Virus record (IMG/VR): IMGVR_UViG_3300036768_001066
DNA from: a virus
Taxonomy: Duplodnaviria > Heunggongvirae > Uroviricota > Caudoviricetes
Length of the DNA stretch: 64,000 nt
Strand: one strand, 5' to 3'
Position 1 is the stretch's first letter. The number at the start of each line of letters is the position of its first letter. Below the pieces are notes generated by a model. The model made no database searches, was not told the origin of the DNA, and was given only the letters and a program-made list of their open reading frames with translations. Shown piece after piece: positions 27,113 through 43,523 of this stretch. Both the position numbers and the translations under genes were made by a program.

Positions 27113-28192
27113 TTACGAAAATTCTTCGCCTGTCTCCTTGTATTTCGGGTTAATCACCTTAACTTTCAGCCATGTCCCGTCCTTGGCCCTGCGCACCTCG
27201 TAAGGAGTTATTACAATGCCCTCCTTAATGTGCAGCTCCTGGCCGGACACCTTCTCGTTACCGAGCGCAAGCTTCTTGAGCTCCGGCACGTTCTCGTAAG
27301 GTCCGTCGTACAGAACAGGAACCCAATTCTTTCTGAAGTACTCCGGAAGCTGATCGTAAGGATATGTCTTTCCGTTTATCGTCACACCGAATATCTTCAT
27401 AGTCGGGTTGACGAAACCATACTTCATGGCCTGACAAGGAATACCCTCACCGAACACCTGCACCACCATCTCATCGCCGGAGCTGAGCCCGGCGAGGGCG
27501 GACAGATTGGGCAGCAAGTCCAGTATGTTGGAGAATAACCCTATATCGTTAACCGCCATCCAGTAGAAGTTGGTATCGCTCTCCACAAGGCACAAGCCCT
27601 CGGCGTTGTAGTTCTTGGTAGACACCCACTTTGCCTTAACCTGGTTGTCGTTGTGCACAGAGATGTATGCCACGAGCTGCGACCCGTGCAGCTTCTCCGT
27701 TATCACGACACGCTCCCCGTCCACGAAGTCAGCAGCGTAAACACCGAACTGTTCGACGTCGTGCTTTATCGAGAAGTTGTCGTACTCGATAGGAACCGCC
27801 ACGCCCTCCATCTCGGAAGGAACCCTCGGCACGTACTTGGTTATACCAAGAATCTCCGACAGGTCCTCGTCGTTAGGCAGCTCGCTTATGTGCTTACCGC
27901 ACTGCGCGAACACAAGCTCGTTAGGTATGATGATACCACAAGATAGCTCACCTCTCAAACGAATAGAACCAACCCTGTTCTTATCAGGACCGTGCAGGTA
28001 GTTCTTGTACTCCTTCTCAAGCTCACCGTTCAGGATGGACTTCTCGGGAGCGAATACCACGTCCTCACCACCGTTGTACAGTCCCTTCTGCACAACTACC
28101 TGGTATGTGCCAATCTTTCCGATTTGCAGTTTCGCCGCATCCGGGTGATCGAACACCTCAATCTTTGTCTTTATTACTTTCCAATTGCTCAT
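27113..28192 (-). CDS. ATP-dependent RNA ligase (Rnl2-like nucleotidyltransferase) with N-terminal extension
   Basis: Motif I VITEKLHGSQLV (KxHG, compare T4 Rnl2 EKIHGTNFS). Confidence 0.55.
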   Translation of the reverse strand: MSNWKVIKTKIEVFDHPDAAKLQIGKIGTYQVVVQKGLYNGGEDVVFAPEKSILNGELEKEYKNYLHGPDKNRVGSIRLRGELSCGIIIPNELVFAQCGKHISELPNDEDLSEILGITKYVPRVPSEMEGVAVPIEYDNFSIKHDVEQFGVYAADFVDGERVVITEKLHGSQLVAYISVHNDNQVKAKWVSTKNYNAEGLCLVESDTNFYWMAVNDIGLFSNILDLLPNLSALAGLSSGDEMVVQVFGEGIPCQAMKYGFVNPTMKIFGVTINGKTYPYDQLPEYFRKNWVPVLYDGPYENVPELKKLALGNEKVSGQELHIKEGIVITPYEVRRAKDGTWLKVKVINPKYKETGEEFS

Positions 28193-28431: not shown

Positions 28432-28848
28432 TTACACGTGGAGACCTCCGATGTTCCCCTTATACAGGTCCTTCATCGTAATCCGTTTCCCTGTGACGTG
28501 GTCGATGACGTAGCCGTCCTGGTCCCGGTAGGTCCTGCGCTTGTCGTTGCGCTCTCCGGTGCCTATCTGCGAGTTGCGGATGCCCTGGATCTTGCGGCCC
28601 TCCCCGTTGTCGTGGATGGCCCGCAGCTTGTCCTCCAGGCGTTCCCAGGCCGCGGCCTCGTTCTTCTCGCGCGTCCTGTGCTCCTCCGACCTGACCTGCA
28701 TGCTGGACGGAATATGCGTGAGCACGACGCAAGTCTCGACCTTGTTCACCTTTTGCCCGCCCTTGCCGCCAGACCTGCAGTACTTGCGGTCGACGTCGTT
28801 GCGGTTTAGCACGAAGTTTTGTTGTGGTTTATCGTCCATGACTGCCAC
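28432..28848 (-). CDS. Release-factor-like GGQ-domain protein (ArfB/RF-family peptidyl-tRNA hydrolase)
   Basis: SGGKGGQKVNKVETCVVLTHIP GGQ motif; C-terminal RTYRDQDGYVIDHVTGKRI like RF1/RF2 RTYNF..RVTDHR. Confidence 0.65.
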   Translation of the reverse strand: MAVMDDKPQQNFVLNRNDVDRKYCRSGGKGGQKVNKVETCVVLTHIPSSMQVRSEEHRTREKNEAAAWERLEDKLRAIHDNGEGRKIQGIRNSQIGTGERNDKRRTYRDQDGYVIDHVTGKRITMKDLYKGNIGGLHV

Positions 28849-29181
28849 CGTGACGATGCTCGTCTGGACCCTGCCTCTCTTCTCCGTAGGGGGTATTCGA
28901 GTCCAACGGTGAGAGCCAGATGGCGGCTTTGCGATAAATAGACGTCATTTCTTCTACAAGAAGTTTTGCATCATCTCTACCGGCCGCCGCACGTATCTCA
29001 AGAACTACCGATTCTTTTTTCATGGCTTTTTGTTTTTGTTATTCAATCACGCTGCCACTCGGCAGCACTGTTATCTGCATTTCTATACCGAGCTCACCCT
29101 GGTCGGTGACGAAGAACCGATCCTCCGTCTCAATCTTTATTATCTCCAGCTCCTTGAACTCCATACCGTAATAATTTTTGG

Positions 29182-29254
29182 AGCCGATGACAGGATTCGA
29201 ACCTGCGACTTTCGGTTTACGATACCGACGTTCTACCAGCTGAACTACATCGGC
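29182..29254 (-). tRNA. tRNA-Thr (anticodon CGT)
   Basis: Canonical cloverleaf: GCCGATG/CATCGGC acceptor, TTCGAAT T-loop, loop ATCGTAA. Confidence 0.7.
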
Positions 29255-29363
29255 AAGTTGGTGACCAGCCCCTATTTACGGACTTAAGGCGAGGACGCGC
29301 TCGGATATTTGCCAGGGAAGCATGCTCCCCTTCGGTCACCTCTTAATCTATTTATCTGGATAT

Positions 29364-29753
29364 TTATTCCACCGAGGTCTCAACCCTGTAGTTGAGCAGG
29401 CGGTTAAAACGTTCGTCCATGGAACCACGGTCCGTTTCCGTCGGGGGTATAAAAAGGTGGTCACCGTCGCTAACAGCGTCCTTGCGGAACGGGTTGGTTC
29501 CGATCATTGGGGACGGGTCCGGCTTGAAATCGTTGGCCCTACATTCCTTCTCCTTTGCCTTCACGAAATTAAAGAACTTGTCTATGGCCGCCACCGCCAC
29601 CACATCGCTCGTCATGCTGTCATTGCCGTAATTCTCTGTCACGAACTGATCCTTCAGCTCGCGTAGTCTCTTCATGTTCATTGTGTTCCTGCCTTTCCTG
29701 TCAATTTGTCCTTGAGCGTTCTTCATGTCTATAAGGTTAATTTCTATTCTCAT
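29364..29753 (-). CDS. Hypothetical protein (129 aa)
   Basis: ORF track. Confidence 0.45.
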   Translation of the reverse strand: MRIEINLIDMKNAQGQIDRKGRNTMNMKRLRELKDQFVTENYGNDSMTSDVVAVAAIDKFFNFVKAKEKECRANDFKPDPSPMIGTNPFRKDAVSDGDHLFIPPTETDRGSMDERFNRLLNYRVETSVE

Positions 29754-29989
29754 TCCACCTCCTCATATTTATCAACCAGTTCAACAATTTCATTACCATC
29801 TGTCAAAACAACATCAGGCAATGCTTTACCGTCTTCATCTATTGCAGGCCAAAATACATATCTATGTGGTACTTTTGGCTCATCTGTATAAGGGTGTTTT
29901 GTTGCAAGTCCACGATATTGAATGTAGCCATGTTTTGAATGGTTTACACCATAACCACGTTTCAAATTTTTTACTTTTATATTTTCCAT
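29750..29989 (-). CDS. Hypothetical protein; start placed at MENIKVKNLKRGYG
   Basis: ORF 29750..30043 with the more plausible internal start. Confidence 0.4.
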   Translation of the reverse strand: MENIKVKNLKRGYGVNHSKHGYIQYRGLATKHPYTDEPKVPHRYVFWPAIDEDGKALPDVVLTDGNEIVELVDKYEEVE

Positions 29990-30248
29990 ACGACAAAGAT
30001 ACGTATAAATATCGTAACAACCAAATTTTTTTACAACTACCACGAACCGCTAACAAAATTAGGGCTTAGGGCTGATAACTAAGCACTCAGCCTTTGTGCT
30101 ACTATTTTACTTCGGTGGTTGTATGAACATTAGAGCCTTGAATGCCCCAACTTCATAAACACCCGACCGTTATATTCCAGTTGCGAAAAGCAACCGAAAA
30201 TATAACACGGGCTAAGAAGAAATAAAAACAACCCAGCTCACCTGTGTA

Positions 30249-30446
30249 CTAAATAACTTCCGTCAAAATTCTCCACTCCTTTAGCATATTGCCATCAAAA
30301 GTTGCTTCAATCGGCACACCTTTTAATTTATCAACACTATCAACTTTTGCCTCCTTTAATAATTTTGATAGGTAACGCATAATCTCAGCGTATTGCTTAT
30401 CTCTGTCGGCTTCTGTCCATTTGCAATTTTTGTCCCACTTAATCAT
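30249..30446 (-). CDS. Hypothetical protein (65 aa)
   Basis: ORF track. Confidence 0.35.
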   Translation of the reverse strand: MIKWDKNCKWTEADRDKQYAEIMRYLSKLLKEAKVDSVDKLKGVPIEATFDGNMLKEWRILTEVI

Positions 30447-30701
30447 TTCGGCATCCCAAGCACATTTCCTCCGTGTCCAAAGGTTACGCTTTCAATTTTC
30501 CCTAATTTCTTTTCCATTGTCATTTAGTTTTTAAATTATAAATTCAGAAGCCTTCCCTTCTGTTGTTTTTACTTACTGACAGTAGCTCTCGTAGCGGGGC
30601 AATACCTGAGAATCCTATTAAAAACATATTTTTTCCTTTTTAGTTTTAGTTATCTGTAATCAAACAGTTACTGGCAATATACAAAATTTAGAACTAACTT
30701 G

Positions 30702-30784
30702 TAGCGCTGGCCGGACTCGAACCGGCGATGCGTTTCCGCGCCTCCTTATGAGGGAGGTCCAATACCATCTCTGGTCACAGCGCT
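30702..30784 (-). tRNA. tRNA-like, anticodon CAT, long variable arm, possible 8-bp acceptor
   Basis: Stem CCTCC/GGAGG, loop CTCATAA; variable CGCGGAAACGCATC; T-arm GCCGG TTCGAGT CCGGC. Confidence 0.45.
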
Positions 30785-31041
30785 AAGTCTTCCCTCACAA
30801 TTCTCTCGATCAGGTCAACGTCCAGCTCCTTGAGCACGGTCTCGTTGCCGTTCTCGTCAGTGGTCTTCGTCCTGCGCCAGATGCGGTCGCCGAGTTTCTG
30901 CCTGGTGACTATCCGGTACTGAGAGTGCGGTTCCGCCGGGAAGAGCGTAACACACAGAGAGCCGAGGCGAGTGTAGTGCACCCAGATCCTCCTGAAATTC
31001 ACGAGCCGCTCTCTGAGCTCGCGTTCTACGTTACATTCCAT
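30775..31041 (-). CDS. Hypothetical protein (88 aa) between tRNA genes
   Basis: ORF track. Confidence 0.35.
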   Translation of the reverse strand: MECNVERELRERLVNFRRIWVHYTRLGSLCVTLFPAEPHSQYRIVTRQKLGDRIWRRTKTTDENGNETVLKELDVDLIERIVREDLAL

Positions 31042-31054
31042 CGTTCATACATTT

Positions 31055-31145
31055 TGGTTGCCCCGGTGGGATTCGAACCCACGTTGGAAGTTACCTTCTC
31101 CGGATTAAGAGTCCGGTACTTTCGGCCAGCTAAGCGAACGGGGCA
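31055..31145 (-). tRNA. tRNA-like, anticodon CTT by loop CTCTTAA, long variable arm, CCA encoded
   Basis: Acceptor TGCCCCG/CGGGGCA, T-arm GTGGG TTCGAAT CCCAC, variable AGAAGGTAACTTCCAAC. Confidence 0.45.
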
Positions 31146-31157
31146 GTTTAAATTTTG

Positions 31158-31245
31158 TGCGCCCGGCAGGATTCGAACCTGCGATGGTGGTTACCCCACT
31201 CCACATTAAAAGTGTGGTGCTCTCGGCCAACTGAGCAACAGACGC
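31158..31245 (-). tRNA. tRNA-like, anticodon TTT, long variable arm (88 nt)
   Basis: D-arm GCTCAGTTGGCCGAGAGC, stem CCACA/TGTGG, loop CTTTTAA, variable AGTGGGGTAACCACCATC, T-arm GCAGG TTCGAAT CCTGC. Confidence 0.5.
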
Positions 31246-31269
31246 AAAATTTTACTTCGTTCTTATTTG

Positions 31270-31342
31270 TGCGCCCGTCTGGAGTCGAACCAGACCTGAA
31301 TGGTTAAAAGCCATTTGCCTACAACCGGTTTGCTACGAGCGC
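31270..31342 (-). tRNA. tRNA-Lys (anticodon TTT), 73 nt, weak D-stem
   Basis: Stem AATGG/CCATT, loop CTTTTAA, T-arm TCTGG TTCGACT CCAGA. Confidence 0.55.
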
Positions 31343-31491
31343 ATGATTGATGCCTCGCAGTCAGCAAGGCGTTACCGTTTATATTTTCGTTTCTGCTTCA
31401 TTTTCGTTTCTTAAATTTTTTGGCTCCCATGATTAACGACCTTTGGGTATTAGTATCCGAAACGGTCATGCGGATCTGCCATTATTTTTTG

Positions 31492-31573
31492 AGCCTGAGG
31501 AGGGATTCGAACCCCCGTTGTTTGAGTTCCTGCTTACAAGGCAGGCGCAGTCGACCACTGATGCCACTCAGGC
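31492..31573 (-). tRNA. tRNA-Thr (anticodon TGT) with extended 12-nt variable region
   Basis: Acceptor GCCTGAG/CTCAGGC, stem CCTGC/GCAGG, loop CTTGTAA. Confidence 0.55.
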
Positions 31574-31761
31574 AATTTACATTCTTCTCTTAATGCCCGT
31601 ATGCTCAAGATAAGTTGTTATCGAGAACTGTACAGACGGTTTAAATTTTCCGCCCATTATCTTGCAATAATAATCGGACATAGCGTTCAATTTATATTCG
31701 ACAGGTTTATCTATCTCGTATAGTTCGACCTGCCTCGTTTTTATCTCTCTTGTCTTCATCG

Positions 31762-31834
31762 AGCTACCGGCGGGGATCGAACCCGCGACCTCGTCCTTAC
31801 CAAGGACGTGTTCCACCGACTGAACTACAGCAGC
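31762..31834 (-). tRNA. tRNA-Thr (anticodon GGT)
   Basis: D-arm GTTCAGTCGGTGGAAC, stem CGTCC/GGACG, loop TTGGTAA, T-arm GCGGG TTCGATC CCCGC. Confidence 0.65.
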
Positions 31835-31924
31835 ATAATGAACAGGTGAAATATCGATGCAGTGTGAGATTCTGCTTCTTCTTTCATAGGACGATTGGCA
31901 TAACCCCAATCATCTTGTTCACTG

Positions 31925-31998
31925 AGCATGTAGTCGGGATCGAACCGACTCTGTTCCAGCTTGGAAGGCTGGCGCACCACCACTTATGCGTTACATGC
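31925..31998 (-). tRNA. tRNA-Gly (anticodon TCC)
   Basis: Acceptor GCATGTA/TACATGC, stem CCAGC/GCTGG, loop CTTCCAA. Confidence 0.6.
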
Positions 31999-32091
31999 AA
32001 AATACGTTCTCTCCACTTGCTACCTCCAACTGGTCCCAGGTTCAGCGGTTAAGAGTCAGGTACATCTCATAGTCACCCAGAGAGAACGTGG

Positions 32092-32178
32092 AGCGGGTAG
32101 TGAGATTCGAACTCACGATCTGACCTTATCTGACCAGCTTGGAAGGCTGGTGCGATGGACCAACTACGCGACACCCGC
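32092..32178 (-). tRNA. tRNA-like, anticodon TCC, long variable arm; anticodon arm identical to the canonical tRNA-Gly(TCC) next to it
   Basis: CCAGCCTTCCAAGCTGG followed by TCAGATAAGGTCAGATC, then T-arm GTGAG TTCGAAT CTCAC. Confidence 0.45.
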
Positions 32179-32264
32179 AAATATTTTAGACAGGGACTGA
32201 AGGGAATTTTCACCTTGGCTCCGGCGGCCTTTCGGTCTCACGATCTACATCAGTTTGTCCTTTG

Positions 32265-32336
32265 TAACGGAGGGCAGAATCGAACTGCCGGGGTCCAGGC
32301 TTATGAGACCAGAAGGTTACCAACAACCTCTCCGCA
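32265..32336 (-). tRNA. tRNA-like, probable anticodon CAT, irregular acceptor and anticodon stems
   Basis: T-arm GGCAG TTCGATT CTGCC; loop CTCATAA with a T-T mismatch in the stem. Confidence 0.35.
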
Positions 32337-32529
32337 ATGTTCAGCGGTTCTCCTGGACCCTATTACCAGGATTTACTTTGGATTGTCGAGTTCTAAATTT
32401 CTCAATAATGAACGACGACAACAGAACCACTTAATGTGGCGGACAAGTGAGATAATGACCTTGTGCGAGATTCGAGGTCCTCTCTCATTGGGTGATCGGT
32501 ATCGCAACCCCGACCATTCTTGTCCACTG

Positions 32530-32602
32530 AGCGGGGGACGGGATTCGAACCCGCGACCTTCACCTTGGCAAGGTGACGCTCTACCAACTGAGCTACTCCC
32601 GC
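32530..32602 (-). tRNA. tRNA-Gly (anticodon GCC)
   Basis: GCGGGAG TA GCTCAGTTGGTAGAGC, stem TCACC/GGTGA, loop TTGCCAA. Confidence 0.7.
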
Positions 32603-32716
32603 ATGAACACCGATTCCTGTCTTCCTCACTGCCTCGGTGTACCACAGCAGTGTCATTCCCTAATTGGAGCCGAGGGGCAGCCCGCCGGCTGTGCGTTCCC
32701 TTTCAACTCGGCATTT

Positions 32717-32797
32717 GTGCGGGAGGAGGACTCGAACCTCCGAGGCTTGCGCATAGGATCATGAGTCCTACCTGATACCATCTTCAGTCACCCCGCA
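32717..32797 (-). tRNA. tRNA-like, anticodon CAT, extended 12-nt variable region
   Basis: Stem TAGGA/TCCTA, loop CTCATGA, T-arm GGAGG TTCGAGT CCTCC. Confidence 0.45.
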
Positions 32798-32821
32798 ATA
32801 TTTTGGTCGCCAGACCTTTTG

Positions 32822-32893
32822 TGCACCCGGAAGGACTCGAACCTTCAACCTACCGGTTAAGAGCCGGGAGCTCTACCATTGAGCTACGGATGC
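32822..32893 (-). tRNA. tRNA-Lys (anticodon CTT)
   Basis: GCATCCG TA GCTCAATGGTAGAGC, loop CTCTTAA, T-arm GAAGG TTCGAGT CCTTC. Confidence 0.6.
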
Positions 32894-33156
32894 GTATAAA
32901 AACAAAAAATCCCGGTTGTTTTAACCGGGATTTTAGGAATCTTGTATACTGTTCAGCACATCATGACTCGCAAATCCCGGAGAATACTTTACCATCCTTC
33001 TTCGTTGTGAAGGTGGTCCCTGTGTACATCCCTTTTGTTATTGTTGCGAACATTTTCTGCTGTATTAAAGTTTTACGTTATATCCTATATATCCTATTTG
33101 TTTCGGATTCTGAAGCAAAATTACGAAAATAATCTGTTCCGTTGTACACGCCCCGT

Positions 33157-33897
33157 CTAAAATTTTTCCACAGACAGTTTATTTATCTCAAAGAGGTGCC
33201 CGTTGTTATGTATGTTCTTGAATTTGACACCGTCAAAAACAGACTTACCGAAGCTGCACACCGCAGCATTTATGAATGTTGTGTCGCAATGCTGTATATT
33301 CAGAGCGCCGCTATTTGGGCAGTTCTCCTCTGGGTGTATGTGACCGAACACGTGGTACCTCGGTTTTTTCCTGGCTATCGCGCGCAACATATCTTTGCAC
33401 CCGCACTGGAAGAATGACTGACCATCCGCGCCAGCCCTCGTGTCGTACTGCGTAAGGTCGAGTATTCCCTTGGGAGGGCCGTGCGTTATCAGTATGTCGA
33501 GACCTTCTGGAATATCGTCCCAATACGAGGAGATGCACCCGCGCGGCACATTGAATGCCCAGTCCTTCCCAAATTGCGGGGTGTACGGGCTGCCGAATAT
33601 CTTGAGTCCGCCGACCTCTGCGTATTCGTGCTCGAGATAAGTTATGGACTCATGTATGTCCCCTCTCGTGACGAGTCCCTTCTCTATGGACGTATCATGG
33701 TTGCCGGCAATAAGCACCTTGTACTTGATATGCGTGAGTGACTTGTACCACTCGAGGAAATCGCGTACCTCGTTGTTGTTGACGGCCGGTTCCTTCGAGT
33801 TGGACATGTCCCCGGCATGTATGGCCATATCAACCCCGTCTGGTATATCCAGAAACATGTGCTTGCAATGTGTGTCGCTTATGAACCAGACTTTCAT
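33157..33897 (-). CDS. Calcineurin-like metallophosphoesterase
   Basis: ISDTHCKH, HAGDM, GNHD, ITHGPP, GHIH motifs. Confidence 0.75.
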   Translation of the reverse strand: MKVWFISDTHCKHMFLDIPDGVDMAIHAGDMSNSKEPAVNNNEVRDFLEWYKSLTHIKYKVLIAGNHDTSIEKGLVTRGDIHESITYLEHEYAEVGGLKIFGSPYTPQFGKDWAFNVPRGCISSYWDDIPEGLDILITHGPPKGILDLTQYDTRAGADGQSFFQCGCKDMLRAIARKKPRYHVFGHIHPEENCPNSGALNIQHCDTTFINAAVCSFGKSVFDGVKFKNIHNNGHLFEINKLSVEKF

Positions 33898-35100: not shown

Positions 35101-35607
35101 TTAAAATAAAGGTTTTATGTTTGCCACTGGTTTGCCGAGCAGCTCCGGGTACTTGGAACCCCAGTACGCCCTCACGCCCATGAGTACTATGCCCAGGTTA
35201 TTTTCTCCTTTGCCATTGCACACACCCCAATAGGTATCGTTCCAGTGGTTTGTCTCCTCGAGGTGGCGCTTGCCAGTTGCAAGCAACTCACGACGCAATT
35301 CGATATTACGGTAGAACTTTTCGAACACGATGACGCTCATCACGTCGAACTTTATCCTGGACCAGTCATCGCGAATGGTTACGATCCTGCCGTTCTTCTT
35401 TGCTTCACCAGCCGTACAGTTCAGGAACATAGTCATTCTGGTGGGCTGGTCCTCTGTCTTAGCGGCCTGATATGCGTGTTCGCTCGACGGGTACTTGATG
35501 CCCTCGAAATAAACCGGTGTCATGAAGAAATTGGACAGGAACCTGTACTTCCCGTCGAAGCCCTTTACGTTATAGTCGTCGTGCACTATGTAGCTCTTGT
35601 CGATCAT
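35101..35607 (-). CDS. NADAR (YbiA/DUF1768) domain protein
   Basis: FLSNFF, SSEHAYQAAK, DTYWGVCNGKGENNLGIVLMGVR match the YbiA FSNF / SEHYFQAQK / DxYWG..GKG.N.LG..LM..R signature. Confidence 0.7.
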   Translation of the reverse strand: MIDKSYIVHDDYNVKGFDGKYRFLSNFFMTPVYFEGIKYPSSEHAYQAAKTEDQPTRMTMFLNCTAGEAKKNGRIVTIRDDWSRIKFDVMSVIVFEKFYRNIELRRELLATGKRHLEETNHWNDTYWGVCNGKGENNLGIVLMGVRAYWGSKYPELLGKPVANIKPLF

Positions 35608-35716
35608 CCTGTCCGTCTGTCCTCCTTAATTTTTATTGACATTTTCTTCTTCGGTTTTAAAGTTATTCCTCCTCCGCTTGGTCTCGTTGCCGTTGTCAAG
35701 AATAATCACATAGGCA

Positions 35717-36349
35717 TTATCGATCGGTCTCGTCGTACAACCGTATCTTCTCGGTTAACGCCGGGTTTGTCACGTCAACGACCCTGGTGTCCTTCGGAAG
35801 GATGACATGTTTCTTCTTCGGAGCCAACCCGAGGTCACCGTGTATTTCCGGCGCAAACTCCACGTGCTCATCCTTGCCGTGTTTCTCCACAGTGAAGCAG
35901 TCATCCACCGTTATCTCGTGGTAGAAGTCTGCCATCTCTATGAGGGCCGTCGATGCGCTGTGCCTGAATGCGGCAATCTCGGTCCTACAACCACGAGCGC
36001 TCAAATACTTGACGAGTTCCATGTAATCGGAATCACCCGATAGGATTATTATGGTGTCAACCTTGTCAACGAGCTGGACCGCCTCTATAGTTAGCGGCAC
36101 ATCTGCACTCTTGTAGCATGGCTTGACTATTCCGTAAAAATTCTTGTGTAATCTCTCGGCGAGCTTCTTCGAGATCTTCTTTCCCTCCCTGAGGTAGAAG
36201 AACTTTGACAGACTGCGCCTACCTATAAGACGCGGTATCAACCGGTCGTAATCCATCATCATGAACTCACCAAAGGTGTTAGCGCTCTTGTCCATGTTGT
36301 TGCCGTCCACCAGGACCGCAACAGTCTGCTGTATCTTTATTTCTTCCAT
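35717..36349 (-). CDS. NYN-domain (LabA-like, PIN-fold) putative RNase
   Basis: VAVLVDGNNM and IIILSGDSDY motifs. Confidence 0.6.
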   Translation of the reverse strand: MEEIKIQQTVAVLVDGNNMDKSANTFGEFMMMDYDRLIPRLIGRRSLSKFFYLREGKKISKKLAERLHKNFYGIVKPCYKSADVPLTIEAVQLVDKVDTIIILSGDSDYMELVKYLSARGCRTEIAAFRHSASTALIEMADFYHEITVDDCFTVEKHGKDEHVEFAPEIHGDLGLAPKKKHVILPKDTRVVDVTNPALTEKIRLYDETDR

Positions 36350-36409
36350 CGCTTACCTGTTAGTTTTTCTATTCAGGTAAGTATACTATTTTTTACGAGA
36401 TGAAAAACA

Positions 36410-36730
36410 TCAGGGCGCAATTCCTTCCTCGTAGCTGTACGTGTCCGGTCCGTCCTCCCCGTTCTTGCATTCGGCGACCCAATTGAGGTAACGCGAAGAA
36501 TCGCCGACGCGGAATCTGTACTCCTCTTGCCCGTTATCCCATTTTGCCAGGAATATGGTCACCGGAGAATCGTTGAGTATCCTCGCGACCTGGTCGAGGA
36601 CCCAGTCCTTGTGGTGCGCTCCGTCTATCCCGCCGTATTTCATGATGAACAGTAGGGCAAACTCAGCCTTGGCATAATCCTTGTATGGAGTGTCCTTCTG
36701 CTCCACAAGCGTCTCTCCTAAGTATTTCAT
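36410..36730 (-). CDS. Hypothetical protein (106 aa)
   Basis: ORF track. Confidence 0.45.
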   Translation of the reverse strand: MKYLGETLVEQKDTPYKDYAKAEFALLFIMKYGGIDGAHHKDWVLDQVARILNDSPVTIFLAKWDNGQEEYRFRVGDSSRYLNWVAECKNGEDGPDTYSYEEGIAP

Positions 36731-36758
36731 ATCTGAGTGGGGTGTATTGTCTGGTGAT

Positions 36759-37732
36759 TTAATTTCCTCGCATTGTACGTCTTAATGAGCCACGTGGCGA
36801 AACCGTTATCCTTGAGTAGCTTGGAATGTTTTTGCGCATGGGTTTTGGAGGGCGATCCATCATGATGGTATTGATCCAGTTTGGATTAACGGTGATGCCG
36901 TTCTGTTCCATGAGTTCAACGATAAAAGCCTTCCACTCTTTGTCGAGTTCATCTGCAGTCTTGCGGTATCGACCTCGTAAATGCTGTCCACCCACTTGTG
37001 GTAGTCCTCCCATTGCTCCCCGTTGTCTCCCTCTATCACAACTATAGTTCTCGATCTAACCAGCGGATCGAATCCACTGGAGTTGATGAGGATCTGACGG
37101 GTTGTGTTTAGTACCTGCCTGAGCGATATATTCGTGTTAATGCCCATCTTGTACCCGAGTAGCAGCAAGTGGAACTGCGCAACCCAGTCCTTGCCGAAAT
37201 CTTCTATGGGTATTGGATAATTGCGACGCCATTCGGCTTCCGCCTCTGGCGTCAGGTCGGGCGGAATCTGCGGGTCAGACTTATACTTATCGTAGATGCA
37301 TTTTGCCTCCTCGAGCTTGACCATCTGCGATTCATGAATTATTGCTGCTGCATCCTCGAACGATACCCACTTAAAGTCATCGACCTCCGGTTGCTGCACG
37401 CCCTTCGGGTTGGTGAACATGGACGTGCACTCGCATTTGATGTCATCACCGGATTCTTCGATGACCGCGAGGAACGGCACGAGGGTCTTCTTGCCGTTCA
37501 TAGATTTTGAGAAGTACGGAGAATTCTCGAGGAATATGACATCGAGAGGATCTATCCTTATCCCGGTCTCCTCCAGGGCTTCTCTACATGCAGCTTCTGG
37601 ATACGACTCACCGTCATCCGGCAGCCCCTTCGGAATGGACCACGTCCGTCCCTCCATCGGCTGGTTGGTGATGTGGCACACAAGAACCCGGTCTCTTGTG
37701 TCTATTATGAATATTCCGCAAGTATAAATCAT
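36759..37732 (-). CDS. Nudix hydrolase with apparent frameshift joining ORFs 36860..37732 and 36759..37013
   Basis: Nudix box GLPDDGESYPEAACREALEETGI; protein-like translation switches frame near 36990. Confidence 0.55.
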
Positions 37733-37929
37733 TTTATCAGGTCTGGCAGTAACGCGTATTTTTTATTCAGCATGGTACCGCGCATGTCGGATACCGTATA
37801 GAACTCGCCGTCGATTTCGTAGCTCCATCTGTCGAATTTAATCAGTTCCATCCTAACTGTGTCGATGTGAGGGCATTTATATTCCAATCCCTCACCCGGT
37901 GGAATGGACACTATTGACTCGAACTTCAC
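37729..37929 (-). CDS. Hypothetical protein (66 aa)
   Basis: ORF track. Confidence 0.4.
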   Translation of the reverse strand: MKFESIVSIPPGEGLEYKCPHIDTVRMELIKFDRWSYEIDGEFYTVSDMRGTMLNKKYALLPDLIK

Positions 37930-37960
37930 GTAGAACTCGCGCCGGCCATCTGACAGGTTC

Positions 37961-38233
37961 CTAACCGACAGTATCGCATGAACTATTGGGTACCGCTTCT
38001 CGTCGTCTTGGTTCGCCGACAGGTTCCGCCCTGCTGGCCGTGACTATGATTGGGAAATCGTCGTTGATGAATAAGAACACCCCTTCGCTGTCGAGCGACG
38101 ATAAGCTGTGACCCTTCAAGTCACGGCCGAAGCTTTCGATAGCCTCGTCCAATTTCTTCCTGCGCATTTCATCAGTCTCTTCGACCTTGATGTGTCTCAG
38201 GTTGCCTGGGTATGGGTTTATCTGGCATCGCAA
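37961..38233 (-). CDS. Hypothetical protein (90 aa)
   Basis: ORF track. Confidence 0.35.
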   Translation of the reverse strand: MRCQINPYPGNLRHIKVEETDEMRRKKLDEAIESFGRDLKGHSLSSLDSEGVFLFINDDFPIIVTASRAEPVGEPRRREAVPNSSCDTVG

Positions 38234-38305
38234 TCTTTATTGAAACAAAATCCCGGAACCTGCATAAAAAAATTATGGGTTGTTCCGGGTTTTGATTTAT
38301 TTAGG

Positions 38306-39994
38306 TTAGGCTGTTATCTCAACATCCATCTCGATTTCAGCGTTCTTACGAACCTGGTCGAACGTGTACTCCACAAGGATCTCTCCATCTCGGAATACCG
38401 GCACCAATACGTCCTCGTATTTGTCGAAATCTGGATCTGTTGACTGCACCGTCTTGAATGCTTCCCACGCCTGCATTCCAGGCTTTCTTTCGGCACGAAC
38501 AAGTTTACAGTATCCAGTTTTTGATTTCTTAACCGCATCGGTCACAGGGTTCTTCTCGATGTTCACGCCGACTCCGTTGATAATTACATGCGTAGCCTTG
38601 ATAGCGTACTTCTGCTCGTCGCGGTCGTGTGCCTGTAGATATTTTCCACCGGAACCGAACACCAGATTCATGATGTCGATTTTCACGGAGATCATACGTT
38701 CGTAAAGTAGGGACATCAATTTGTAATTCACACCATCTCCTTGGAGCACACCGATCTGAGGGTGGAATACTCTGAAACCTTTCGAGTTTGTGGTGAATCC
38801 AAAGTGGTCGAACAGGATATTGAAAATTCCTTTATCCACGAGGCTCTGCGCTTCGACAATGTCAATGTCCATGTGTTTAGACACCTTCATCACAACTTGC
38901 GACACGTAGTGCGGGTCCACCTTTGAATCGTTGAACAATCCGAATAGAACCATCTCGGCATCTCCGGAATCAGGACGTACGACAATCTTGATAGGGATAC
39001 CATGATTATTGGTCCATCCGATGAACTCGTCTTTAAGGCCAGGAAGGATTCTGTGACACACGTTATAGATATTCTTGGTATCCGATACGAGAGATAAGAT
39101 GATCACCCCACTTGCAGGGTTGGCATTTAGCACCAATGGGTCGGTCTTGACCTTGTTGATGATGGTGCGGTATCCCTCAGGATCGCTCGCATCGCCATCG
39201 TATGAACAATGCACTGAGTGTTCCGACGCGATAACAGAGAAACCGGCCATTGGACAACCGTAGTACTTCTCGGCAAGAACACAAGCACCTAATGTGTCGG
39301 TTCCTTTGAACGAGATAAGCGCCGCGGTACCAAGGATGCGAGCGGACTCTTCCGAGCTAACTCCACGGTATCCGAAGTCGTGGTGCATGAAGTCGATCAG
39401 CCACTGTGGCGCGTCGGACGACAATGCGTGATACTTAACGATAAGTTCCTTCACCAGGCGAGCGTACGTCGCGACAGTGTTAGGCGCCCACAATTTCATC
39501 AACGTGGTTTCGCTGATGTTGGTGAGTGGTGAGCACTTCTTATCTGTATTGCGGATAGTCATGATGATGTTCTTCACCGCAACCGGAGTACCTTCCGGAA
39601 CTGCCTTGATCTCGAGAGGTAATCTTCCTCCGTGATTCTCCCAGATGTGGTACCACATCTTGTCGTTAAAACAGTCGAAGCCGAAGTGTGCGATGTTCTT
39701 CTTACGAGCTTCCTCGATTTTTGCTGGGGTAATGCGAACACCGGCAAAGTATTTTTTCAGATAGTACTGCAATAAGCAAAGGATAGTGTAAGGCATATCC
39801 CCGCCGCGCGACTCAAGACCCGAATAGGTCTCCTCGATTCCATCAGGTACGAGAAGGTGGTGCGTCATTTTGTAACTGTCCGACATGATGATGAAATTGT
39901 CTTCATCTTGTAAATTTTGGATGATGGCTACGAGCTCTGTCACACTCATGTTTTGCAGCTCGGCATCCGTGTAATCGCCATGATGTTTCTTCAT
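38306..39994 (-). CDS. nadV: Nicotinamide phosphoribosyltransferase (NAMPT)
   Basis: DSYKMTHH, LPLEIKAVPEG, HDFGYRGVSS, FKGTDT, VRPDSG, LQGDGV, VFGSGG align with the eukaryotic and KVP40 NAMPT signature. Confidence 0.9.
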   Translation of the reverse strand: MKKHHGDYTDAELQNMSVTELVAIIQNLQDEDNFIIMSDSYKMTHHLLVPDGIEETYSGLESRGGDMPYTILCLLQYYLKKYFAGVRITPAKIEEARKKNIAHFGFDCFNDKMWYHIWENHGGRLPLEIKAVPEGTPVAVKNIIMTIRNTDKKCSPLTNISETTLMKLWAPNTVATYARLVKELIVKYHALSSDAPQWLIDFMHHDFGYRGVSSEESARILGTAALISFKGTDTLGACVLAEKYYGCPMAGFSVIASEHSVHCSYDGDASDPEGYRTIINKVKTDPLVLNANPASGVIILSLVSDTKNIYNVCHRILPGLKDEFIGWTNNHGIPIKIVVRPDSGDAEMVLFGLFNDSKVDPHYVSQVVMKVSKHMDIDIVEAQSLVDKGIFNILFDHFGFTTNSKGFRVFHPQIGVLQGDGVNYKLMSLLYERMISVKIDIMNLVFGSGGKYLQAHDRDEQKYAIKATHVIINGVGVNIEKNPVTDAVKKSKTGYCKLVRAERKPGMQAWEAFKTVQSTDPDFDKYEDVLVPVFRDGEILVEYTFDQVRKNAEIEMDVEITA

Positions 39995-40017
39995 TTTGGT
40001 TTTTATTTAGGTTTATA

Positions 40018-40638
40018 TTATTGATTTTGGTCTACCAACTCTTTGAACATAGCGAACAGAGGCGCGTGTGTAGGGTTGATCTTAAACTCAGGCGAGTAAA
40101 GTTCCTTAACGTCGAACCACTTTGTCACCGCCACGTCATCGAATCCTTGTCCAGCCTCTCCGTCCTTATGGATGGCATAAAAGAATGATGTTATGATTCC
40201 GTGTGGTGTATCCCTGTACCTCGGGTCGTCGATGTTGGAAGATCCGATGTAGTTCATTTCGAACACGTCCATGCCGGTCTCCTCCTTGACCTCACGTGCA
40301 CCAGCTTCCTCCGCACTCTTGTCGGTCGGGTCGATGAATCCACCAGGGAATCTCCAGATGCCGAGCGATACCTCGTGTGGTTTCTGGATGAGCAATACGT
40401 GTGTTATATTGTGGTCGTGGTCCGTCTTAACCACTGCGACATCCACGGTGTGGAATGCAATGGGGTACCGCACCGTGTATTCGGTTGTTTTTTTCTGGAA
40501 CAGCAATTGCTCGATCTCTGTTGCGGCGCTTGCGGCATCCATAGCATCACCCTCGACGTTTTTTCGAGGTATCTTGTTAACAACCTCGTGGATCTGTTTC
40601 CAAATCTGGCTTCTTTCAATTTCGGTGGTTTGTTCCAT
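40018..40638 (-). CDS. Nudix hydrolase (ADP-ribose / NAD-related pyrophosphatase family)
   Basis: Nudix box GGFIDPTDKSAEEAGAREVKEETG. Confidence 0.7.
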   Translation of the reverse strand: MEQTTEIERSQIWKQIHEVVNKIPRKNVEGDAMDAASAATEIEQLLFQKKTTEYTVRYPIAFHTVDVAVVKTDHDHNITHVLLIQKPHEVSLGIWRFPGGFIDPTDKSAEEAGAREVKEETGMDVFEMNYIGSSNIDDPRYRDTPHGIITSFFYAIHKDGEAGQGFDDVAVTKWFDVKELYSPEFKINPTHAPLFAMFKELVDQNQ

Positions 40639-40916
40639 TATTTCCTTTTATTTAGTTCGTCTCTTATTGCCGCGGCCAGTTCGTAGTCCTCATCTCTCAC
40701 TGCCTTGTCGAGTAAATCTTCCAGATCTGTTGTCTCGTCGTAGGACTTCAACTTGAAAGCCGCCGGTTTTTGCTCGTGTGATTTTAATAAAGTTTTTGCA
40801 CTCGCTCTCGGCTCGAACCTCTGCCTGCTCCGATAGGCGTCTCTCCGTAACGACAGATAGAAGCCTATTCCCAATGCCAAGAACGCCAAAGCTGTTATCA
40901 CTATAGTTATAGACAT
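40638..40916 (-). CDS. Small membrane protein with C-terminal UVR-like motif
   Basis: N-terminal TM helix; DEDYELAAAIRDELNKRK. Confidence 0.4.
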   Translation of the reverse strand: MSITIVITALAFLALGIGFYLSLRRDAYRSRQRFEPRASAKTLLKSHEQKPAAFKLKSYDETTDLEDLLDKAVRDEDYELAAAIRDELNKRK

Positions 40917-40928
40917 GCGCGTAATACA

Positions 40929-41240
40929 TCACTTCTTATATTTGTCCCTCAGAACCTCGGGTATGTGTTCGACAGCGCCGGCCCTCACCTGCGTGGAACT
41001 GACGTTGCTGTGCTCTATGCTTCTCACCTCAATGTGCGACATCACCGATTCGAGCTGCGTCAGTACATAGGGTATCTCGAACCCGTCCCTCTTCACAACA
41101 AAAAGTTTCACATTGTCGAAGTCCTTGTCGAACGTCTCCACCTCCCTGTGATACGGGTGATTAGGCGTTCCGTCGTCCTTCAGTACCGGGTACGAGCTCT
41201 GGAATATACGCACAAGCGTATCTACGCCAACCGCGAACAC
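40929..41240 (-). CDS. Hypothetical protein (103 aa)
   Basis: ORF track. Confidence 0.45.
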   Translation of the reverse strand: MFAVGVDTLVRIFQSSYPVLKDDGTPNHPYHREVETFDKDFDNVKLFVVKRDGFEIPYVLTQLESVMSHIEVRSIEHSNVSSTQVRAGAVEHIPEVLRDKYKK

Positions 41241-41272
41241 GATGGGTTGGCTGAACTTCTGACGAAGGTACT

Positions 41273-42112
41273 TTATGTGAAAAATCCACTGCGTGATACG
41301 ACCACATCGTAGCCGAGCTTGTTGAGGTCTTCTATTCTGCTCTTGAGCTCCTGTGAAGACAGCGTGCCCTTGCCGTATATCTCGGCACTTATCATGAGTT
41401 TTGGCTTGCTGTTGTATTCGGATTTAACAGCCTCTGCTATTTCCACGTGCCCGTTGTGTATAGGGTTGAAGCTTCCCTTGAATAACAGGATGGACCTCTC
41501 CTCCCTGAAAAAATCCTCCAGACGGTAGAACTTGCCGTCTCTGATGCACAGGAAGTCGTCTTGTCTCGTGTGTCTCACCATGTCGAACATTTCGGCCTGA
41601 TTGTCATCGAATCCGTCGACGATGTCCACGCACGCACCGGTCGGAACGTATTCGTTCCTGGCGGCTATGATGAGCAGACCGCACAGTGCTATCCTCTCGA
41701 GGTACTGCTTTCTTGTGAGGCTCTCGTGTATTGATATATGGTAGTATCTCGTCTTCGACTTGTATGCGTACGCGATCCAGCCGTGTGTCGACTTGCCGTC
41801 TCCACCAAGTTGGAATGATGCGATGTAAGCGGCATTCACGCCGTTGAGACCGATCATATCCTTCCATCTCCACTCCAAAATTTTAGACACGCTCTCTTTG
41901 GACACCGCCCTGGTTCCTTCGTTATGGTAGTTGTCGTGCTGGTACTCGCGAGAATATGGACACTCGGACACGTAAACTGTCGCGGTCGCACCGGCAATGC
42001 TCATCAGTGCGTTGACTACGGCAACGCCGCATCCCATCTCCACGAAGCACCCGTAAATGTCGCTGAGGTGAATGTCTTCGGCGAGCTTATCTATTTGCTT
42101 TGATATTTCCAT
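41273..42112 (-). CDS. NMN adenylyltransferase-like nucleotidyltransferase with N-terminal CinA-like(?) domain
   Basis: C-terminal LLFKGSFNPIHNGHVEIAEAV has the GxFxPxHxxH cytidylyltransferase/NMNAT motif. Confidence 0.5.
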   Translation of the reverse strand: MEISKQIDKLAEDIHLSDIYGCFVEMGCGVAVVNALMSIAGATATVYVSECPYSREYQHDNYHNEGTRAVSKESVSKILEWRWKDMIGLNGVNAAYIASFQLGGDGKSTHGWIAYAYKSKTRYYHISIHESLTRKQYLERIALCGLLIIAARNEYVPTGACVDIVDGFDDNQAEMFDMVRHTRQDDFLCIRDGKFYRLEDFFREERSILLFKGSFNPIHNGHVEIAEAVKSEYNSKPKLMISAEIYGKGTLSSQELKSRIEDLNKLGYDVVVSRSGFFT

Positions 42113-42245
42113 AGTTCAAACTGTCTTGTGTGACCTTTGTCATGTGTCGTTTCTCGTTATTGCGCGAGCACCGTCACGATGTCCGCAATCATGAAGCCCA
42201 CCAATAATATGGCGATGAACAAAAGTATTGGTCCTATTCTGAATC

Positions 42246-43523
42246 TCATTTATCTCTCACTACCCTGTCACATTGCTGCAGCAGTTGGTTAAACTTTATA
42301 GCTTCGCGGCGTCTCTGCTCTTCGCCCATCTCCGGTCCTTCCTTCATACCTTCATCTAACAAAGATTGTCCGGTCACACTGAGTTTGTAAACGCTAAGTG
42401 CCAACGCGTTCGCATTACGGCGCTTCTCCTCTTTGGACATTACCCAATGTAAAAACACGGTAAGATCCGCGTCCGCCAGCTCGAGGCGTTCTCTGCGTTT
42501 AGCTATCGTAAACGCGAACGTATGAAGCTCGTCGGTAGCATGCTCAACATACTTGGCAGCATCGAGCAATAGCTCCACACCGTCCACAAACTTATTCGGT
42601 AATTTTATCTCCTCCTTCAGTTTACGGGTGAGCATCTGTCGGCTTGTATCAGATGCGTGGAACAGCGAAGCTACAAGTACCTCCGGAGTTCTTGTGTTAA
42701 TCCATTGCTCCGGATAGTAATACCCGGGCATGACTTGATAGAGTAGACCATATTCCTGCAACAATGTGAAGTACATCAACGGTGAGTTGAGTTGTTCGAA
42801 CGCCTTGAACATTTCTTCATTTATGCGCTCGCGAACAATAGGCACTGTATTACCATCTTTGTCTGGTCCTTCGAGTACCCGGCATTTCATAATGGCTTCG
42901 GCGGTATCCTCGTGTATCTTCATACCAAAGCGAAGCGCAAATCTGATGGCTCTCAGCACGCGCAATCTATCCTCGTTGAACCGGTCCACCGGGTTGCCTA
43001 CACAGCGCAATACTCTGTTCTCTACGTCTTCAACGCCGCCAACAAGGTCGATTATCTCGCACTTGTCGAGGTCGTAAAACAAAGCATTGATGGTGAAGTC
43101 GCGCCGCAGCACGTTCTCTTCGATTGTTGCGCCGAGCCTTACCTCTGGTTGACGCCCGACGGAGACGTCCTCGCGGAAAGTCGCTATCTCGTATCCCTTT
43201 GGACAGTCCTTGGTATAAACTCGTATCACCCCGAAACTCTTGCCCGTGTAATCCAAGCGGTAGTTGTCTTTGAGAAGTTCGGATATTTTTTCTGGCATGG
43301 CGTCTGTGGCCATGTCGTAGTCCTTGATGTTGGACCCGAGCAGGTGGTCACGGACACATCCCCCAACAACAAAGAGCTGGTGACCAGCGGCAGTCATAAT
43401 TTGGTGGATGTCCTTGATGTCCTGTGGAATATTCATAATGTAAAGATACGAATTTTTTATTGATATTGAACCCAGGAGATGCCTGTATCTCTCGATTAGC
43501 TCTTGCTCTTTATCTACATTCAA
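42246..43523 (-). CDS. cca: tRNA nucleotidyltransferase (CCA-adding enzyme)
   Basis: LFVVGGCVRDHLLG ... DYDMAT ... EIATFRED ... RRDFTINAL polymerase-beta head-domain motifs. Confidence 0.8.
   Translation of the reverse strand: MNVDKEQELIERYRHLLGSISIKNSYLYIMNIPQDIKDIHQIMTAAGHQLFVVGGCVRDHLLGSNIKDYDMATDAMPEKISELLKDNYRLDYTGKSFGVIRVYTKDCPKGYEIATFREDVSVGRQPEVRLGATIEENVLRRDFTINALFYDLDKCEIIDLVGGVEDVENRVLRCVGNPVDRFNEDRLRVLRAIRFALRFGMKIHEDTAEAIMKCRVLEGPDKDGNTVPIVRERINEEMFKAFEQLNSPLMYFTLLQEYGLLYQVMPGYYYPEQWINTRTPEVLVASLFHASDTSRQMLTRKLKEEIKLPNKFVDGVELLLDAAKYVEHATDELHTFAFTIAKRRERLELADADLTVFLHWVMSKEEKRRNANALALSVYKLSVTGQSLLDEGMKEGPEMGEEQRRREAIKFNQLLQQCDRVVRDK

Follow-up and report, generated by a model that had tools for sequence, protein, structure and literature searches.

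By the textbook rule, a long variable arm occurs only in the tRNAs for Ser, Leu and Tyr (in bacteria) and for Sec, and the known exceptions, the nev-tRNAs of nematodes and the allo-tRNAs, are thought to be mischarged or non-translating. Nev-tRNAs carry a variable arm (V arm) together with Gly or Ile anticodons (PMC3333845, PMC4300185), and allo-tRNAs and (8/4) tRNA-Ser/His were found in metagenomes, some of them in phage tRNA clusters (Mukai et al., PMC5389517). Phages are also known to encode tRNAs that escape defence, among them the T5 tRNA-Lys, tRNA-Thr and tRNA-Asn acting against AriB of the PARIS system (PMC11464382, PMC12409363), anticodon-loop variants (PMC10264068) and a case involving a retron (PMC11555353); the paper on huge phages says only that phage tRNAs differ from host tRNAs (PMC7162821). 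Here we analyze a 64,000-nucleotide stretch of DNA (hereafter the window) from a Caudoviricetes virus, IMG/VR record IMGVR_UViG_3300036768_001066, in which six tRNA genes with Lys, Gly, Thr and CAU anticodons have a long variable region, and we report comparable genes from many other phages. To our knowledge, the tRNAs for Lys, Thr, Gly, Met/Ile, Asn, Cys, Trp, His and Val are all type I in known cells. Our search of open-access papers and bioRxiv preprints returned no description of phage tRNAs of type I isotypes (Lys, Thr, Asn or similar) with long arms, and phage V-arm isoacceptors appear to be a large, undescribed class, of which the array in the window is one clear example among many. Judging from sequence, we consider it probable that the six genes are functional V-arm tRNAs charged with their cognate amino acids.

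Transfer RNA genes were called with ARAGORN and with the Rfam tRNA model RF00005 (gathering score, 29 bits). All 20 tRNA genes that ARAGORN predicts in the window are on the minus strand, and 13 of them form the array at 29179-32893 (minus strand; this holds for every array gene below). The variable region measures 11-18 nt in six of the 13: Lys-UUU, Lys-CUU, Gly-UCC, Thr-UGU and two with a CAU anticodon. These six genes are 81-91 nt long and score 41.9-59.8 bits. A preliminary description of the locus had noticed canonical tRNAs beside type-II-like copies with the same anticodon (Lys-UUU, Lys-CUU and Gly-UCC), while allowing that the copies might fold as ordinary type I tRNAs or be low-scoring pseudogenes. 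ARAGORN and Rfam agree on the pairs and keep the insertions, all with scores above 29 bits, and in the Infernal alignments every insertion falls between the anticodon stem and the T stem.

The long tRNA-Lys(UUU) (31157..31245; 89 nt, 59.8 bits) has an 18-nt variable region, AGUGGGGUAACCACCAUC, with a 4-bp stem GUGG/CCAC, the loop GGUAA and a 3' tail CAUC; it has A73 and two extra bases in the D loop (20a/20b-like). Its normal-length partner lies at 31269..31342 (46.1 bits), with the anticodon arm AAUGG-CUUUUAA-CCAUU. The long tRNA-Lys(CUU) (31055..31145; 49.1 bits) combines a 17-nt variable region, A-GAAG-GUAA-CUUC-CAAC, and an encoded CCA with U1-A72, A73 and a three-base connector between acceptor and D stem, and its partner of normal length (32821..32893) scores 70.2 bits. 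Position 39 is U in the two long Lys copies and C in the two short ones. The long tRNA-Gly(UCC) (32089..32178; 56 bits) also encodes CCA and has two extra D-loop bases, G1-C72, C2-G71, G3-C70 and U73; its variable region of 16-17 nt is weakly paired, with no clean hairpin in the minimum free energy (MFE) fold, and L037 holds a tRNA with the same acceptor stem. Its partner (31924..31998; 48.7 bits) has a 6-nt variable loop. The long copy thus outscores the short one for Lys-UUU and Gly, and scores below it for Lys-CUU. As first described, the 17-nt anticodon arm of the Gly pair is identical, CCAGCCUUCCAAGCUGG; this arm is the commonest among 52 other phage tRNA-Gly(UCC) genes (4/52), so that its identity is typical of the isoacceptor and no proof of recent duplication, and we discarded it as evidence for one.

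A sixth long member, tRNA-Thr(UGU) (31491..31573; 50.1 bits), had been overlooked. It has a 12-nt unpaired, A/C-rich variable loop, AACUCAAACAAC, with G1-C72, C2-G71, U73 and an extra-long D loop; the Thr tRNAs of L117, L147 and L009 have ...AAACAUC loops resembling it. Three CAU tRNAs had been credited with extended arms or irregular stems, and for two of them the long arm stands. The first (Met or Ile2; 30701..30784; 48.5 bits; CAU-30701) has a 14-nt variable region, C-GCG-GAAA-CGC-AUC, with A1-U72, A73 and a three-base connector between acceptor and D stem, and its MFE fold has five arms (z -3.3). The second (32717..32797; 41.9 bits; CAU-32717) has a variable region of 11-12 nt containing GC-GCAA-GC, weakly paired over 2-3 bp in the MFE fold, with U1-A72, C73 and again a three-base connector; relatives with its acceptor sequence UGCGGGG are found in L108 and L230. 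The third CAU gene, at 32264..32336, is not long-armed: its variable region has 8 nt, its stems are irregular, and it is called by ARAGORN only, as the Rfam tRNA model does not match it even at E<=1; it is possibly a pseudogene. The three remaining genes of the array, Thr(CGU) (29179-29254), Thr(GGU) (31761-31834) and Gly(GCC) (32529-32602), are canonical and called by both programs, at 64-71 bits.

All six long genes have an acceptor stem of 7 bp and a T stem of 5 bp, with every stem intact. The D loop is enlarged in four of them (Lys-UUU, Lys-CUU, Gly and Thr), where the Infernal alignments place two inserted bases; the two CAU tRNAs have no such insertion and have the 3-nt connector instead. 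ARAGORN drawings and MFE folds give a five-arm cloverleaf for Lys-UUU, Lys-CUU and CAU-30701, which thus have what defines class II tRNAs, a variable region of more than 10 nt that forms a stem-loop. We also considered whether the insertions could be introns, and rejected this on the grounds of their site in the variable region, their size of 11-18 nt and the bacterial phage lineage (a relative, L001, has a transfer-messenger RNA (tmRNA), and other relatives infect Prevotella).

We scanned viral contigs with the pattern CTTTTAAN{20,30}GGTTCGAATCC, in which 20-30 bases separate the anticodon loop of Lys-UUU from a common T arm, and obtained matches at no fewer than 120 viral loci. Among the matches listed, about 108 loci have a long tRNA-Lys(UUU) called by ARAGORN, with 94 distinct sequences; the same arrays hold long-arm tRNAs for Thr, Asn, Met, Ile, Trp, Cys, Val, Gly and His, and 29 of the 80 viral contigs exceed 100 kb, with long-arm tRNAs also present on small contigs of 4-40 kb. 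A complete scan with a control pattern for Arg(ACG) returned 96 loci, only 18 of them with a long-arm tRNA-Arg. An exact 27-mer of the window's long Lys tRNA had no match in the viral contigs. The huge phage LR745206 has a tandem of one normal and two long Lys-UUU genes and one long Lys-CUU gene. A search with the RNA ligase of the window yielded a single relative, the 207-kb viral contig L001, which encodes an 89-nt tRNA-Ile(UAU) with a 21-nt variable arm; the tmRNA of this contig (1715-2117, plus strand; tag AEKKEGKLLVGNFGATPVSRGVVAALAA) adjoins its tRNAs. The closest complete relative of the window, LR756500, encodes 26 tRNAs and has 14-nt variable arms in those for Glu and His. This set differs from that of the window, and the long-arm isotypes therefore vary between phages.

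Long-arm genes are also present in a cultured phage, the jumbo Xanthomonas phage Xoo-sp13 (L122), which has a long tRNA-Cys of 89 nt (L122 3706-3794; 48472-48560 in MN047793.1) and a long tRNA-Asn of 87 nt (L122 3999-4085; 48765-48851 in MN047793.1). Neither is annotated in the GenBank record MN047793.1, which points to a gap in annotation. A scan of genome_contigs gave mostly noise, with long Lys tRNAs in 12 among the 120 matches listed. Among these matches, metagenome-assembled genomes of Actinomycetota (Frankiales, Mycobacteriales) have a conserved, single-copy tRNA-Lys(UUU) with a 15-17 nt arm, GCG(C)-GAAA-(G)CGC followed by CAUC, that shows compensatory change (L183 5179-5263, L195 2977-3061, L196 1157-1243 and L242 877-961). 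In its D arm it is similar to the neighbouring tRNA-Glu, and the genes lie in cellular assemblies and not in tRNA arrays; they may be a chromosomal or mobile-element case of the same architecture.

The extra arm is a maintained structure. In 90 long Lys-UUU tRNAs the mean MFE of the variable region is -2.87 kcal/mol, against -0.74 kcal/mol after shuffling, a difference of about 16 standard deviations of the shuffled mean; genuine Ser, Leu and Tyr tRNAs behave similarly, as do 69 long tRNAs with other isotypes. The usual layout of the arm is one or two free bases, a stem of 3-5 bp, a tetraloop (often GNRA) and a 3' tail such as CAUC. Across the class, the D loop has 9-11 nt in long Lys tRNAs and 7-9 nt in short ones. 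We aligned 30 diverse long Lys members, including 31157..31245 of the window, with MAFFT, and RNAalifold, run unguided, predicts a cloverleaf with a fifth helix. The four pairs of the variable helix show 3, 11, 9 and 13 double changes. Its cells are paired in 79.7% of cases vs 50.8% after shuffling, and its covariation score is 0.66 vs 0.20 (0.10-0.23 in slid controls); none of 500 shuffles reached the observed value in either comparison. The stable hairpin and the covariation together rule out random insertion and decay as the origin of the class.

The bases that specify the amino acid also follow the anticodon. Ser tRNAs mostly have G73 as discriminator base, and Leu and Tyr tRNAs have A73. 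Across about 300 long-arm tRNAs, the discriminator is that of the isotype named by the anticodon and mirrors the short tRNAs of the same anticodon: U73 in Cys (10/13), Thr (16/24) and Gly (7/9), G73 in Trp (9/9) and Asn (12/14), C73 in His (8/9) and A73 in Lys (91/118). This is the pattern expected with cognate synthetases, and not with redirection to the synthetases for Ser, Leu or Tyr (SerRS, LeuRS and TyrRS). The acceptor of the window's long tRNA-Gly, with G1-C72, C2-G71, G3-C70 and U73, is the classical set for glycyl-tRNA synthetase (GlyRS). In a comparison of cores that left out the variable region, the long Lys genes were nearest to each other (0.75 core identity) and then to the normal Lys-CUU, the long Gly gene was nearest to the normal Gly-UCC, and for no long tRNA of the window was one of its Ser or Leu tRNAs the nearest. 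As a structural class these tRNAs are solid: their structure, their recurrence across phages, the covariation of the extra helix and the isotype-specific discriminators are all results of the programs. Given the tracking of the discriminator and the 7/5 stems, we read the long-arm genes as functional tRNAs that are probably charged cognately.

For the arm itself, an attractive hypothesis is offered by defence systems that attack tRNAs, and the link to host tRNA-targeting nucleases made in the preliminary description is plausible. AriB of PARIS cuts the tRNAs with anticodons UUU (Lys), UGU (Thr), GUU (Asn) and CGU (Thr) between positions 40 and 41, with Lys UUU and Thr UGU as its main targets, and T5 evades it through variant tRNAs in which position 39 is one of the two changed (PMC12409363). 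FaRel2 targets Gly and Thr tRNAs and excludes type II tRNAs (PMC11245113), and a long variable arm can therefore be an anti-determinant for a tRNA-targeting effector. In arrays selected for a long Lys-UUU, and among the matches listed, we counted as long every tRNA with a variable region of at least 9 nt. Long members make up 15/32 of Thr-UGU, 8/15 of Thr-CGU and 0/27 of Thr-GGU genes, 11/48 of Asn, 15/59 of Met and 11/33 of Trp, with 0/32 for Ala, 0/28 for Arg-ACG, 1/51 for Asp and 1/49 for Phe. An independent sample gave Cys 9/26, Ile-UAU 6/10, Val-UAC 5/27, His 5/40, Lys 11/68, Gly-UCC 0/40 and Phe 0/38. In 26 pairs of a long and a short Lys(UUU) from the same locus, again among the matches listed, the motif U36-A-A-U39 was kept by the long copy only in 13 and by the short copy only in 3 (sign test, p=0.02). 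These counts fit two routes of escape, one by shape and one by sequence, for which the support is weak. The genes around the array of the window, described below, include an RNA ligase, a metallophosphoesterase, a CCA-adding enzyme and NAD-salvage/ADP-ribose genes.

In the mechanism that we propose, the six genes would read the codons AAA/AAG (Lys), ACA (Thr), GGA (Gly) and AUG/AUA, each inserting the cognate amino acid, with a class-II-like body in which a 7-bp acceptor, a 5-bp T stem and cognate identity elements are joined by an added variable arm. The arm would let them escape effectors that target tRNAs. Candidates are nucleases that, like PrrC or PARIS AriB, act on the anticodon stem, and enzymes that, like the toxSAS FaRel2, modify type I tRNAs specifically. 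Such effectors would probe a type I tRNA at its body or on the side of the anticodon stem and could be obstructed by a helix that emerges at positions 44-48, a site 3-4 nt from the AriB cut at 40/41. The phage could then keep translating when the Lys, Thr, Gly or Met tRNAs of the host are destroyed or blocked, and the normal-length partners would be a second, sequence-based solution. That the arm exists to evade tRNA-targeting defence is a tentative proposal, which we hold to be somewhat less probable than its opposite. The combined statement, functional cognate V-arm tRNAs whose arm serves defence evasion, we consider close to evenly balanced, leaning slightly to the negative. The broadest version, in which grafting a V arm onto type I isotypes is a general and unrecognised counter-defence of phages, is doubtful. 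Such "armoured" tRNAs would serve the cognate synthetase, EF-Tu and the ribosome and yet be invisible to type-I-specific nucleases and modifiers, and they would span hundreds of phage lineages, especially jumbo phages and megaphages, with Lys, Thr, Asn, Met/Ile, Cys, Trp, His, Val and Gly isotypes.

Several observations weigh against these interpretations. In the window itself, helix formation in the variable region is weak for Gly (2-3 bp) and absent for Thr. When the anticodon was masked, the nearest tRNAs were Ser/Tyr for 42 and cognate for 46 of the 107 long Lys cores; the resemblance to Ser/Tyr is probably due to a D arm of class II type, although class II ancestry is possible for part of the long Lys class, and some charging of long Lys tRNAs with Tyr or Leu is conceivable, given the shared A73. 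The fit to PARIS targets is strongest in the sample that was selected for long Lys(UUU). The independent sample is broader (Cys, Ile, Val, His), with an enrichment for ANN decoders of only about 2-fold, and in LR756500 the Lys tRNA is normal, with the long arms on Glu and His instead; both weaken the idea that long arms mark exactly the PARIS targets, and we dropped it in that form. The U36-A-A-U39 comparison is biased, its long copies having been selected through an E. coli-like T arm.

Other explanations were weighed against the same evidence. The preliminary description had suggested that the long copies could be mischarged, since long variable arms are identity elements for SerRS, LeuRS and TyrRS. 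On this view one of these synthetases would be drawn in by the arm, and Ser, Leu or Tyr would in part be inserted at Lys, Gly, Thr or Met codons, as with nev- and allo-tRNAs. In its favour, the variable arm is the main identity element for SerRS, nev-tRNAs can be charged with Leu in vitro (PMC3333845), allo-tRNAs occur with anticodons other than those of Ser (PMC5389517), long Lys tRNAs share A73 with Leu and Tyr tRNAs, and there are the Ser/Tyr-like Lys cores just mentioned. The evidence disfavours such mischarging and makes it quite unlikely, since the discriminators stay isotype-specific even where this sets them apart from Ser (G73) and from Leu and Tyr (A73), as with U in Cys, Gly and Thr and C in His, the long Gly gene holds the Gly acceptor set, the window's long cores are nearest to their cognate partners and not to Ser/Leu tRNAs, the stems are 7/5 and not 8/4 or 9/3, and translation of the window with the standard code yields full-length matches to conserved families. 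The long copies were also proposed to be decoys, which would not translate and would absorb or mis-trigger host nucleases through the same anticodon arm. Such decoys seem still less probable: although the anticodon arm of the Gly pair is identical and the host-like UAAU motif is retained more by long than by short Lys copies, the long genes keep features that only translation needs (7-bp acceptor, isotype-specific discriminator, T loop GUUCGAAUC), 40 of 79 long Lys tRNAs have an encoded CCA, and about 70% of loci have no short copy of the same anticodon nearby, so that the long copy is probably the phage's only one there. Working tRNAs resistant to nucleases fit the evidence better than decoys. 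That the long genes are decaying duplicates or pseudogenes, as had also been suggested, is very improbable. The six score 42-60 bits (Lys-UUU and Gly above their partners) with all stems intact, and this suggestion is contradicted by the recurrence of the class in at least about 108 viral loci, by a variable hairpin more stable than shuffled sequence and by compensatory changes in its helix; in its favour are the irregular CAU gene 32264-32336, which fails the Rfam model, the poorly paired variable regions of Thr and Gly, and sub-threshold tRNA-like remnants in a second tRNA cluster of the window.

Two further explanations account for the arm in other ways, and we consider each of them unlikely. 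The arm may be a handle for phage factors (a phage aminoacyl-tRNA synthetase, a modification enzyme, the RNA ligase, the CCA enzyme, or a nuclease that spares arm-bearing tRNAs), setting the tRNAs of the phage apart from those of the host. Huge phages encode up to 15 aminoacyl-tRNA synthetases and their own tRNA variants (PMC7162821), the window is related to them, RNA ligase, CCA enzyme and RF-1-like protein are encoded around the array, and the isotype set differs between related phages, as expected under co-evolution with phage factors. Opposed to this, no aminoacyl-tRNA synthetase or tRNA-modifying enzyme is found among the scanned open reading frames of the 64-kb window, and long-arm tRNAs occur on the viral contigs of 4-40 kb, which are unlikely to encode synthetases. 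Alternatively, the hairpin may stabilise fast-evolving, under-modified phage tRNAs, for instance by replacing the m7G46/acp3U47 chemistry of the variable loop, or may be a tolerated product of recombination that often joins class I and class II tRNA genes within arrays. The isotype bias is unexpected under neutral tolerance, even within Thr (UGU and CGU vs GGU, 0/27), and the compensatory maintenance of the helix indicates selection; yet many isotypes are affected, the same arrays contain the reverse case of Leu tRNAs with short variable loops, and odder tRNA-like genes occur in the same phages.

This reverse anomaly is common (L002-L121, L244-L339): tRNA-Leu genes (UAG, UAA, CAA) have a variable loop of 4-7 nt, as in type I tRNAs (for example, L007 9744-9820). 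Furthermore, about 77 of the 96 loci matched by the control pattern for Arg(ACG) are members of a recurring family of tRNA-like sequences without an ARAGORN call (within L244-L339; e.g., L244 882-927, plus strand, and members in L247, L248, L253, L256, L257 and L260). Its layout consists of a 7-bp acceptor, a linker of about 7 nt (UAACCCU-like) in place of the D arm, the anticodon loop CUACGAA, a variable region of about 20 nt (nGAAAGGUAAYYGGAWNCAU), a T arm and often CCA. Its members, which occur in many phages, resemble a tRNA-Arg that lacks the D arm and has an extended variable region.

Two irregular sequences were also found among the tRNA genes of the window outside the array. A tRNA-Leu(CAG)-like sequence (51461-51526, minus strand), beside a tRNA-Leu(GAG), has an acceptor stem, a D arm, an anticodon arm and a short variable hairpin, without a T arm, and scores 28.6 bits against the Rfam tRNA model, slightly below the gathering score. 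Directly downstream of tRNA-Ser(GGA), an irregular tRNA-like sequence (50895-50985, minus strand) has a T arm CAGGG-UUCGAAU-CCCUG, an acceptor CUCCCG/CGGGAG, an ACCA end and an anticodon-like loop CCUAAAC; it has no ARAGORN call and only a partial Rfam match of 22.4 bits.

Almost all open reading frames of the window, including those named here, are on the minus strand. An RNA ligase (27113..28192; PHROG RNA ligase, Pfam RNA_ligase PF09414) adjoins the array and provides a context of tRNA repair, and between the two lies a small RF-1-domain protein (28432..28848; Pfam PF00472, 84.5 bits) that resembles peptidyl-tRNA hydrolase/ArfB, with a GGQ motif read in its translation. On the other flank, a calcineurin-type metallophosphoesterase (33157..33897; Pfam PF00149) may serve to heal RNA ends. 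Directly upstream of the first array tRNA, a strong hairpin precedes a T run (32898-32935, minus strand; AAAUCCCGGUU...AACCGGGAUUUUUUGUUUUU). From its sequence, this element is likely to be the terminator of the phosphoesterase gene, in which case the array probably has its own promoter or comes from processed read-through transcripts. The encoded CCA is absent from most array tRNAs, and a tRNA nucleotidyltransferase (CCA-adding enzyme) is encoded at 42246..43523 (PHROG 2244, E 1e-62).

PHROG and Pfam scans also identified a cluster of NAD/ADP-ribose genes at 35101-45215, with a NADAR protein (35101-35607), two Nudix proteins (36860-37732 and 40018-40638), NAMPT (38306-39994), a cytidylyltransferase-like protein (41273-42112) and a PARP-like ADP-ribosyltransferase (43932-45215). 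It looks like an island of NAD reconstitution and counter-defence adjoining the tRNA genes. Other genes of the window encode a tail sheath, a portal, a thymidylate synthase, an NYN-domain protein and a large terminase with inserts. In the terminase reading frame (15979-19809; 1276 amino acids), the terminase matches are split by a middle segment that matches endonuclease, helicase and ribonucleotide-reductase PHROGs, which suggests that it carries at least one intein or insertion. The portal is nearest to those of uncultured huge phages and Prevotella Lak megaphages (48% identity to LR756500; 35-38% to LR756501-4 and LR745206), and from this kinship we infer that the window is part of a megaphage. 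When the DNA of the array was searched at near identity against 50,697 phage records, a 58-bp tRNA-Gly match was the sole result.

The phage tRNAs described here look like an exception to the variable-arm rule that is a large, conserved class with cognate identity, easily found with a single pattern search. If the class is real, the synthetases for Lys, Thr, Gly, Asn, Cys and other amino acids (LysRS, ThrRS, GlyRS, AsnRS, CysRS) tolerate a class II body, there is a testable idea of how tRNA-targeting immunity (PrrC, PARIS, toxSAS, VapC-like toxins) may be overcome by phages, and these tRNAs could provide natural scaffolds for orthogonal or tagged tRNAs.

Compared with known systems, the long phage tRNAs resemble the class II tRNAs of bacteria (Ser, Leu, Tyr) in their variable region of more than 10 nt with a stem of 3-5 bp, a small loop and a short 3' tail, in their enlarged D loop and in the 7/5 branch of acceptor and T stem; they differ in having the anticodons and discriminators of Lys, Thr, Gly and Met/Ile tRNAs or, elsewhere, those of Asn, Cys, Trp, His and Val tRNAs. 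With nev-tRNAs they share a long arm on a non-Ser/Leu anticodon, alongside a normal isoacceptor. Nev-tRNAs, however, are eukaryotic, tRNA-Leu-like and leucylated in vitro, whereas the phage genes follow the isotype of their own anticodon. Allo-tRNAs are likewise irregular, with long variable arms and many non-Ser anticodons, but have an 8/4 or 9/3 branch and Ser identity (G73/U73). The window genes are 7/5, with A73 in the Lys tRNAs and CAU-30701, C73 in CAU-32717, and U73 only in Gly and Thr, for which it is the cognate base. We also tried to read the genes with a 3-nt connector (Lys-CUU, CAU-30701 and CAU-32717) as 8/4 allo-tRNAs, and rejected this: the eighth pair would be a U-C mismatch. 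The escape tRNAs of T5 type are similar in being phage-encoded replacements of attacked tRNAs (Lys UUU, Thr UGU) kept beside tRNA-repair genes; known escape works through substitutions in the anticodon stem-loop, unlike the added helix seen here, whose resistance is putative. The type I tRNA-Leu of Streptomyces (PMC6614811) is also a case of one isotype with both architectures, charged by a single synthetase, although there the change ran in the opposite direction, with the arm lost, and in a cellular setting.

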